Assembly (NCBI RefSeq): GCF_003334315.1
Contig: NZ_QOWR01000100.1
Source: Escherichia coli
Lineage (GTDB): Bacteria; Pseudomonadota; Gammaproteobacteria; Enterobacterales; Enterobacteriaceae
Reading direction: 5' to 3' (one strand)
Length of the DNA stretch: 4,320 nt
Below are positions 1,161-1,870 of the stretch, piece by piece. The position numbers were made by a program, and so were the translations under genes. The notes beneath the pieces are model-generated. The model was not told where the DNA came from, ran no database searches, and saw only the letters and a list, made by a program, of their open reading frames with translations. Numbering within the stretch: position 1 is the stretch's first letter; every line of letters starts with the position of its first letter.

Positions 1161-1764
1161 GACTAACTCCTCTAAATCAGTTATCAGTGGCTGCTGCCAG
1201 TGGCGCTTTTGCATGTCTTTCCGGGTTGGACTCAAGATGATAGTTACCGGACAAGGCGCAGCGGTCGGACTGAACGGGGGGTTCGTGCATACAGTCCAGC
1301 TTGGAGCGAACTGCCTACCCGGAACTGAGTGTCAGGCGTGGAATGAGATAAACGCGGCCATAACAGCGGAATGACACCGGTAAACCGAAAGGCAGGAACA
1401 GGAGAGCGCACGAGGGAGCCACCAGGGGGAAACGCCTGGTATCTTTAAGTCCTGTCGGGTTTCGCCACCACTGATTTGAGCGTCAGATTTCGTGATGCTT
1501 GTCAGGGGGGCGGAGCCTATGGAAAAACGGCTTCGCCGCGGCCTTCTCATTTCCCTGTTAAGTTCCTTCTTGGCATTTACCAGGAAACTTCCGCCCTATT
1601 CGTAAGCCCGCACCGCTCGCCGCAGCCGAACGACCGAGCGCAGCGAGTCAGTGAGCGAGGAAGCGGAATATATCCTGTCTCATATATTCTGCTTACGCTC
1701 CGCTGCTGCATTTTTCTCCTGCCACATGAAGCGCTTCACTGATTCCCGCACCCGTGCCAACATA

Positions 1765-1870
1765 GTAAGCCAGTATACACTCCGCTAGCGCTACGTGACT
1801 GGTTCAGGGCTGCGCCCCGAAACCCGCTAAAACCACTGACGCGCCTGCGGCTTGTCCAACACCGCGCCGA
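1765..1870. other. bom / oriT (basis of mobility, contains the nic region) of ColE1 type
   Basis: agccagtatacactccgctagcgctacgtgactggttcagggctgcgccccgaaacccgc...ctgacgcgcc...ggcttgtc is colinear with the pBR322 bom segment as recalled (agccagtatacactccgctatcgctacgtgactgggtcatggctgcgccccgacacccgcc...). The exact nick position is not assigned. Confidence 0.7.

Follow-up and report, generated by a model that had tools for sequence, protein, structure and literature searches.

The window, the whole 4,320-nucleotide stretch of DNA analyzed here, is almost certainly the natural plasmid pK, a mobilizable member of the ColE1 family with a p15A-type replicon and no rop gene. rop is absent from the whole plasmid. 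The interval 1575–1765, which the initial annotation had placed between origin and bom and had read as lacking its rop gene, is, judged by its alignment, a normal non-coding origin–bom interval and not an emptied gene slot. The Rop-less state of pK is ordinary and already known, the exact plasmid having been deposited long ago.

Identity and gene content of the plasmid

The first 75 bases of the window recur at its end, and the window is therefore a complete 4,245-bp circle read past its own start (Table 1). Full-length comparison gives 99.9% identity with pK of Salmonella Enteritidis (NC_003456.1), and at least ten 4,245-bp plasmids of E. coli and Salmonella match the window at 100%. A six-frame NCBIfam scan gave matches to MbeA and MbeD only. 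MbeA, together with MobC, MbeB, MbeD and a ColE1-type nic region, constitutes a ColE1-type mobilization module (MOB P5/HEN). The annotated mobC ATG at 1938 is not preceded by an obvious ribosome-binding site; an AGGAGG at 1906–1911 is followed, after 5 nt, by a TTG at 1917 in frame with mobC, and MobC might start at this candidate codon, seven codons upstream of the annotated ATG.

Table 1 Positions of the replication, transfer and mobilization features in the window
Feature	Position	Strand	Evidence
Terminal overlap	1–75	.	Exact repeat at 4246–4320; 100% full-length matches to 4,245-bp circular records
RNA II pre-primer, about 505–510 nt	1019–1527	+	Both ends inferred, the 5′ end from the RNA I 3′ end (1022) and the 3′ end from the origin motif
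RNA I of p15A type: antisense regulator of copy number, three stem-loops	1022–1122	-	Rfam RF00106, 99.2 bits, E = 1.2e-18, full model
Origin motif, GGAGCCTATGGAAAAACG	1512–1529	+	18-mer identical in ColE1, the pMB1-like plasmid, the pACYC184-like L012 and other relatives
Flagged interval, non-coding, origin to bom	1575–1765	.	Homologous along its length to the ColE1 and p15A interval; no CDS; no Rop signal
Conserved core of the interval	1600–1670	.	96–100% identity over 52–71 bp in a comparison with eight Rop+ plasmids of the ColE1 family (L003–L009)
bom/oriT	1755–1856	.	Homology to ColE1 ends at 1856
nic-region 21-mer, AAGCCAGTATACACTCCGCTA	1767–1787		Identical in ColE1 (1463–1483), the pMB1-like plasmid, L005, L007 and L012
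bom–mobC spacer, 81 bp	1857–1937	.	In ColE1 and pMB1-like plasmids, rop occupies this site, within a segment of about 310 bp
mobC (MobC/MbeC-family relaxosome accessory protein)	1938–2261	+	Annotated as WP_001347450.1 in identical records; 68.7% DNA identity to ColE1 1867–2190
mbeA (relaxase)	2251–3747	+	NCBIfam NF047848 relax_MbeA_E1, 910 bits (cutoff 500) over the full length
mbeB, within mbeA in a different frame	2939–3424	+	Annotated as MbeB family protein WP_023139312.1 in identical records
mbeD (mobilization/exclusion protein), nested in mbeA	3428–3643	+	NCBIfam NF033829 plas_excl_MbeD, 102 bits (cutoff 60)

The remainder of the plasmid holds a cer-like site and two cargo genes. The cer-like XerC/XerD core (GGTGCGCCCAAGGGATGTTATGGTAAAT) at 211–238 is presumably a multimer resolution site; the pattern occurs once in ColE1 (3909–3938) and is present in most of the related plasmids examined. 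The two cargo ORFs, 275–862 (-) and 3772–4290 (+), have no assigned function. One of the encoded proteins (195 aa) has a lipoprotein-like N terminus with a hydrophobic stretch ending in ...AISGC, and the other (172 aa) has a hydrophobic N terminus. Neither was matched by Pfam or PADLOC, and neither is similar to ColE1 Exc1 or Exc2. In PHROG, each has a match to a family of unknown function (phrog_7678, E = 2e-19; phrog_31425, E = 2e-28), and the second cargo protein is 33% identical to a hypothetical protein in two Klebsiella phages.

A p15A-type replicon

The RNA I of the window scored above the RF00106 gathering score of 47, and its three stem-loops overlap the 5′ end of the primer. RNA II and the origin are homologous to those of ColE1, and the six-frame NCBIfam scan returned no plasmid Rep protein, as is characteristic of a ColE1-type replicon. 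A 37-aa ‘replication initiation protein’ is annotated at 1177–1290 (-) in some RefSeq records, wholly within the RNA II transcript, and ColE1 and other relatives bear this label within their origins too; this CDS is most likely an annotation artefact.

To type the replicon, a p15A origin sequence was used as probe, which gave matches of 100% identity in the plasmid collection, and a pACYC184-like record (NZ_CP110197.1, 4,245 bp, carrying catA1 and tet(C)) served as reference. From the RNA II promoter to bom (974–1792), the window is 93.3% identical to this record, with 4 gaps over 822 columns, and the RNA II body (1123–1520) is 97.7% identical to p15A. RNA I agrees with that of the reference at 100 of 101 positions; including its loops it is essentially identical to p15A RNA I, the mark of the p15A incompatibility type, and the replicon is accordingly classed by homology as p15A-type. 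The sole RNA I difference lies at window position 1063, in the stem of stem-loop II, where RNA I has U here and A in p15A. The change converts an A–A mismatch into an A–U pair, closing the mismatch in stem-loop II, and could shift the copy-number set-point.

In two near-identical backbones (NZ_CP071085.1 and L019), RNA I shares only about 72% identity with the RNA I of the window, while the spacer and mobC are 98–100% identical and the MbeD protein does not differ. Between plasmids that are otherwise the same, the determinant of incompatibility has been exchanged.

Absence of Rop from the plasmid

Rop/Rom proteins are about 60–65 aa long and form a helix-turn-helix dimer that makes up a four-helix bundle. 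The initial annotation had reported no Rop-like ORF, and this holds for 1575–1765 and for the plasmid as a whole, with both tblastn and a start-independent profile search remaining at noise level. When the tblastn search that it had proposed was run with a 63-aa Rop query (100% identical to its match in a plasmid record), no Rop was found in the plasmid, the best match reaching 18.9 bits (E = 0.073) in the mbeD–mbeA overlap; the same query scored 128 bits on ColE1. A profile HMM was then built from nine diverse Rop proteins, about 55–100% identical to the query, and run unfiltered on every stop-to-stop segment of 15 aa or more in the six frames, 146 in all. The best score in these segments was 2.2 bits (E = 1.3), compared with the 90–119 bits at which each Rop was recovered in leave-one-out controls. 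As this search is independent of the start codon, a Rop-like ORF with a non-standard start is also excluded as far as homology shows. No ORF in the plasmid thus has the similarity to Rop expected of a Rop/Rom family member (Pfam PF01815). The NCBIfam scan is uninformative on Rop, as its library came without a positive control for the presence of a Rop model; it also missed MobC, which is present.

At the DNA level, a remnant of rop was sought with 12 rop genes, those of the closest siblings included; matches in the plasmid were at most 37 nt long, with a best E of 0.026. The identical records have no CDS annotated within the origin–bom interval.

The origin–bom interval is of normal length

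The initial annotation had set the origin at 1575 and had counted about 190 bp from there to bom. Both values needed correction. Alignment to ColE1 puts the origin motif about 50 bp further upstream (Table 1), and the distance from this motif to the nic motif is 238 bp. The value of 1575 is obtained when the 555 nt of ColE1 are added to the RNA II start, but the RNA II of this plasmid is about 50 nt shorter. An RNA–DNA switch in the A-run of the origin is said to have been established for ColE1 by Itoh and Tomizawa in 1980; by homology to ColE1, the switch in the window is predicted to fall in the A-run at 1523–1527.

A short gap between origin and bom had been read as the sign of a missing gene, yet Rop+ plasmids show the same gap. 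The spacing between the origin 18-mer and the nic-region 21-mer, 238 bp in the window, is 239 bp in the pACYC184-like record; in Rop+ plasmids it is 238 and 252 bp (two plasmids) or 264–268 bp (ColE1, the pMB1-like plasmid and L005). A spacing of 238–268 bp is the norm of the family, whether rop is present or not.

Within the interval, the core at 1600–1670 is strongly conserved (Table 1), in contrast to the replicon as a whole, which is only 72.6% identical to that of ColE1. Identity over the core falls to 81% in the Rep-encoding plasmid L010 and is 77–92% in a few other relatives. We take the core to correspond to the lagging-strand primosome assembly (PriA/n′, factor Y) site of pBR322 and ColE1; its conservation, together with the literature, suggests that it probably is such a site. 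DNA folding of 1530–1765 on both strands gave no fold better than those of shuffled sequences (z from -0.56 to +1.0), with a minus-strand hairpin in the core at -15.3 kcal/mol reaching z = -0.43. Secondary structure therefore lends no independent support to a primosome site, which conservation does support. A promoter and terminator scan of 900–2300 found no promoter-like sites there, and terminators at chance level only, and was therefore uninformative. At the far end of the interval, a bom probe (1755–1835) was 88–97% identical in relatives with a full-length bom match, and the nick is presumably made, as transferred from ColE1 data, in the minus strand between 1769 and 1770.

rop is found beyond bom

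The premise that rop belongs between origin and bom is contradicted by ColE1 and the pMB1-like plasmid, both of which carry rop beyond bom. Along the RNA II strand of ColE1 (NC_001371), RNA I (645–749) is followed by the origin motif (1182–1199), the conserved core (1308–1364), bom (1462–1530), rop (1612–1803) and mobC (1867–2190), with rop on the strand opposite to RNA II and directed back towards bom. The same order of elements is found in the pMB1-like plasmid, which encodes the same Rop as pBR322, and rop also lies beyond bom in L005, L007, L009, L013, L015 and L016. The exceptions are L006 and L008, which have a different mob type: in these, rop directly follows the conserved core and a weak oriT-like match lies beyond rop. 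An ori–rop–oriT order does occur among plasmids of the family, though ColE1 and pMB1 do not show it.

Alignment of the two plasmids locates the difference. Window 974–1856 corresponds to ColE1 598–1556 and window 1938–2952 to ColE1 1867–2881, leaving unaligned the 81 bp of the spacer in the window (1857–1937) and 310 bp in ColE1 (1557–1866), the latter containing rop. As rop falls in this unaligned bom–mobC segment of ColE1, the site at which rop is missing is the bom–mobC spacer and not 1575–1765. When 1840–1945 was compared with the segments around rop in ColE1 and in the pMB1-like plasmid, there was no similarity and no demonstrable deletion scar in the spacer. A 251-bp probe comprising bom, the spacer and the start of mobC detected the contiguous junction, at a coverage of at least 80%, in 1,096 plasmid records spanning Escherichia, Klebsiella, Salmonella, Enterobacter, Citrobacter and other genera. 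In practical terms, rop should be sought beyond bom and not between origin and bom.

Copy number and the origin of the Rop-less state

The initial annotation had further proposed that copy number depends on RNA I alone and may be elevated. The first part agrees with the plasmid, in which rop is absent and RNA I (RF00106) is the only recognizable plasmid-encoded regulator. The second was not supported: RNA I is identical to that of the pACYC184-like record at all but one position, and rop-less p15A vectors are of medium copy number. Rop-less vectors with a p15A origin were measured by qPCR at 18 ± 4 and 21 ± 2 copies per cell (PMC3478263) and, in another case, by ddPCR at 8.6 copies (PMC5168713). 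As a Rop-less p15A replicon, pK would by analogy be expected at roughly 10–20 copies per cell, with the qualification that its replicon differs from that of pACYC184 at about 7% of positions, including base 1063 in stem-loop II of RNA I. A modest rise relative to the Rop+ siblings with the same RNA I (L013 and L015) is possible. The absence of rop should not, without a measurement, be read as high copy number, the closest characterized Rop-less replicon, that of the p15A vectors, being of medium copy number.

In the arrangement that we favor, replication would be primed by RNA II (about 1019–1527) and throttled by antisense RNA I (1022–1122). With no Rop encoded, the RNA I–RNA II kissing complex would form unaided, as in pACYC-type vectors. 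The 81-bp spacer joins bom directly to the mobC–mbeA–mbeB–mbeD operon. Downstream of bom, plasmids of the family have a rop module, a mob module or both; rop travels with this downstream segment, where pK carries the mob operon instead. Exchange of modules through oriT and cer has been suggested for such plasmids (Ares-Arroyo et al. 2021, PMC8683028).

A rival reading, in line with the initial annotation's view, is that rop was deleted recently, leaving an abnormally high, uncompensated copy number and a raised dosage of the cargo genes. We regard this as very improbable. The bom–spacer–mobC junction, kept in 1,096 records across many genera, is so an old and stable architecture, the identical 4,245-bp plasmid occurs in at least ten independent isolates, and remnants of rop are missing both as protein and as DNA. 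The siblings with the same RNA I (100/101) do carry rop (112 bits in L013 and 113 bits in L015), so that rop-lessness is not fixed in this RNA I lineage, and plasmids of the pBR322 type rise a few-fold in copy number when rop is deleted. Vectors that share this RNA I and lack rop nevertheless reach only 14–21 copies per cell (PMC3478263). Among Enterobacterales ColE1 plasmids, rop is present in 59% and absent from 41%, and its presence shows a negative association with that of a relaxase (Ares-Arroyo et al. 2021, PMC8683028); as a relaxase-bearing plasmid without rop, pK conforms to the majority pattern. The lack of rop in itself therefore matters little, Rop-less ColE1-family plasmids being common and rop being missing more often when a relaxase is present (PMC8683028).

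Still less probable is a scenario in which the mob-carrying, Rop-less p15A-type branch compensates for Rop, either at the RNA level, for which the substitution at 1063 would be a candidate, or through an unrelated plasmid product. If it were true, the modules carrying rop and mob would be alternative cassettes in a functional sense on the downstream side of bom, and more than recombination partners. Hardly credible at all is a divergent or non-homologous substitute for Rop encoded elsewhere, whether helical MbeD (3428–3643), a short unannotated ORF or a cargo protein: the best matches to Rop do lie in the helical MbeD/MbeA C-terminal region (18.9 bits by tblastn; 2.2 bits by HMM) and two cargo ORFs have no known function, but these non-significant scores are noise against the 90–119 bits of true Rops down to about 55% identity to the query, MbeD belongs to a curated mobilization/exclusion family, and the N-terminal export signals seen in the cargo ORF translations (one signal-plus-Cys and lipobox-like, one hydrophobic) make action on a cytoplasmic RNA unlikely.

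Comparison with known systems

The unaided RNA I control proposed for pK has its closest counterpart in the p15A vectors of the pACYC184/pACYC177 type, which share its RNA I (100/101), are 93.3% identical over 974–1792, lack Rop and, in the pACYC184-like record, have an ori–nic spacing of 239 bp compared to 238 bp. These vectors are engineered, stop within bom (38 bp of the bom probe match) and have neither mob genes nor cer, whereas pK is natural and has a complete bom, the mobC–mbeA–mbeB–mbeD operon and the stem-loop II substitution at 1063. A Salmonella Heidelberg plasmid, ‘ColE1-4kb’, is also Rop-less and was measured at 3–10 copies (bioRxiv 10.1101/312322). It is 4,784 bp long, pBERT-like and a different plasmid, and was left out of the evidence.

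With ColE1 (NC_001371) and plasmids of the pMB1/pBR322 type, pK shares the logic of an RNA II primer and an RNA I antisense regulator, the origin 18-mer, the conserved core, the bom 21-mer and MbeA-type mobilization genes in the same order. Unlike pK with its 81-bp spacer, ColE1 has rop (1612–1803) within the bom–mobC segment of about 310 bp. Its replicon is only 72.6% identical to that of pK, and its RNA II is about 50 nt longer. The two RNA I species are about 80% identical, in a partial 57-nt match only, which implies a different incompatibility specificity.

Natural 2.3-kb cryptic plasmids of p15A-like type (for example L013, which is LC663725.1, pMNBL076-3, and L015, which is NZ_CP030184.1) are also close to pK, with RNA I identical at 100 of 101 positions, 97.7% identity over the RNA II body and 96% over bom. 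They carry rop beyond bom (228–416 in LC663725.1 and 2082–2270 in NZ_CP030184.1) and no mob genes, whereas pK has mob genes and no rop. A further natural 2.3-kb plasmid with the same RNA I, L014, is without rop, and the lack of rop is therefore a trait that varies among plasmids with this type of RNA I. Over its 830-bp origin region, LC663725.1 shares 99.9% identity with the p15A origin of pACYC184; for NZ_CP030184.1 the value is 96%. As natural plasmids with a p15A origin thus carry rop, the rop-less state of the ‘p15A origin’ may belong to the fragment used in the vectors rather than to the natural plasmid type.
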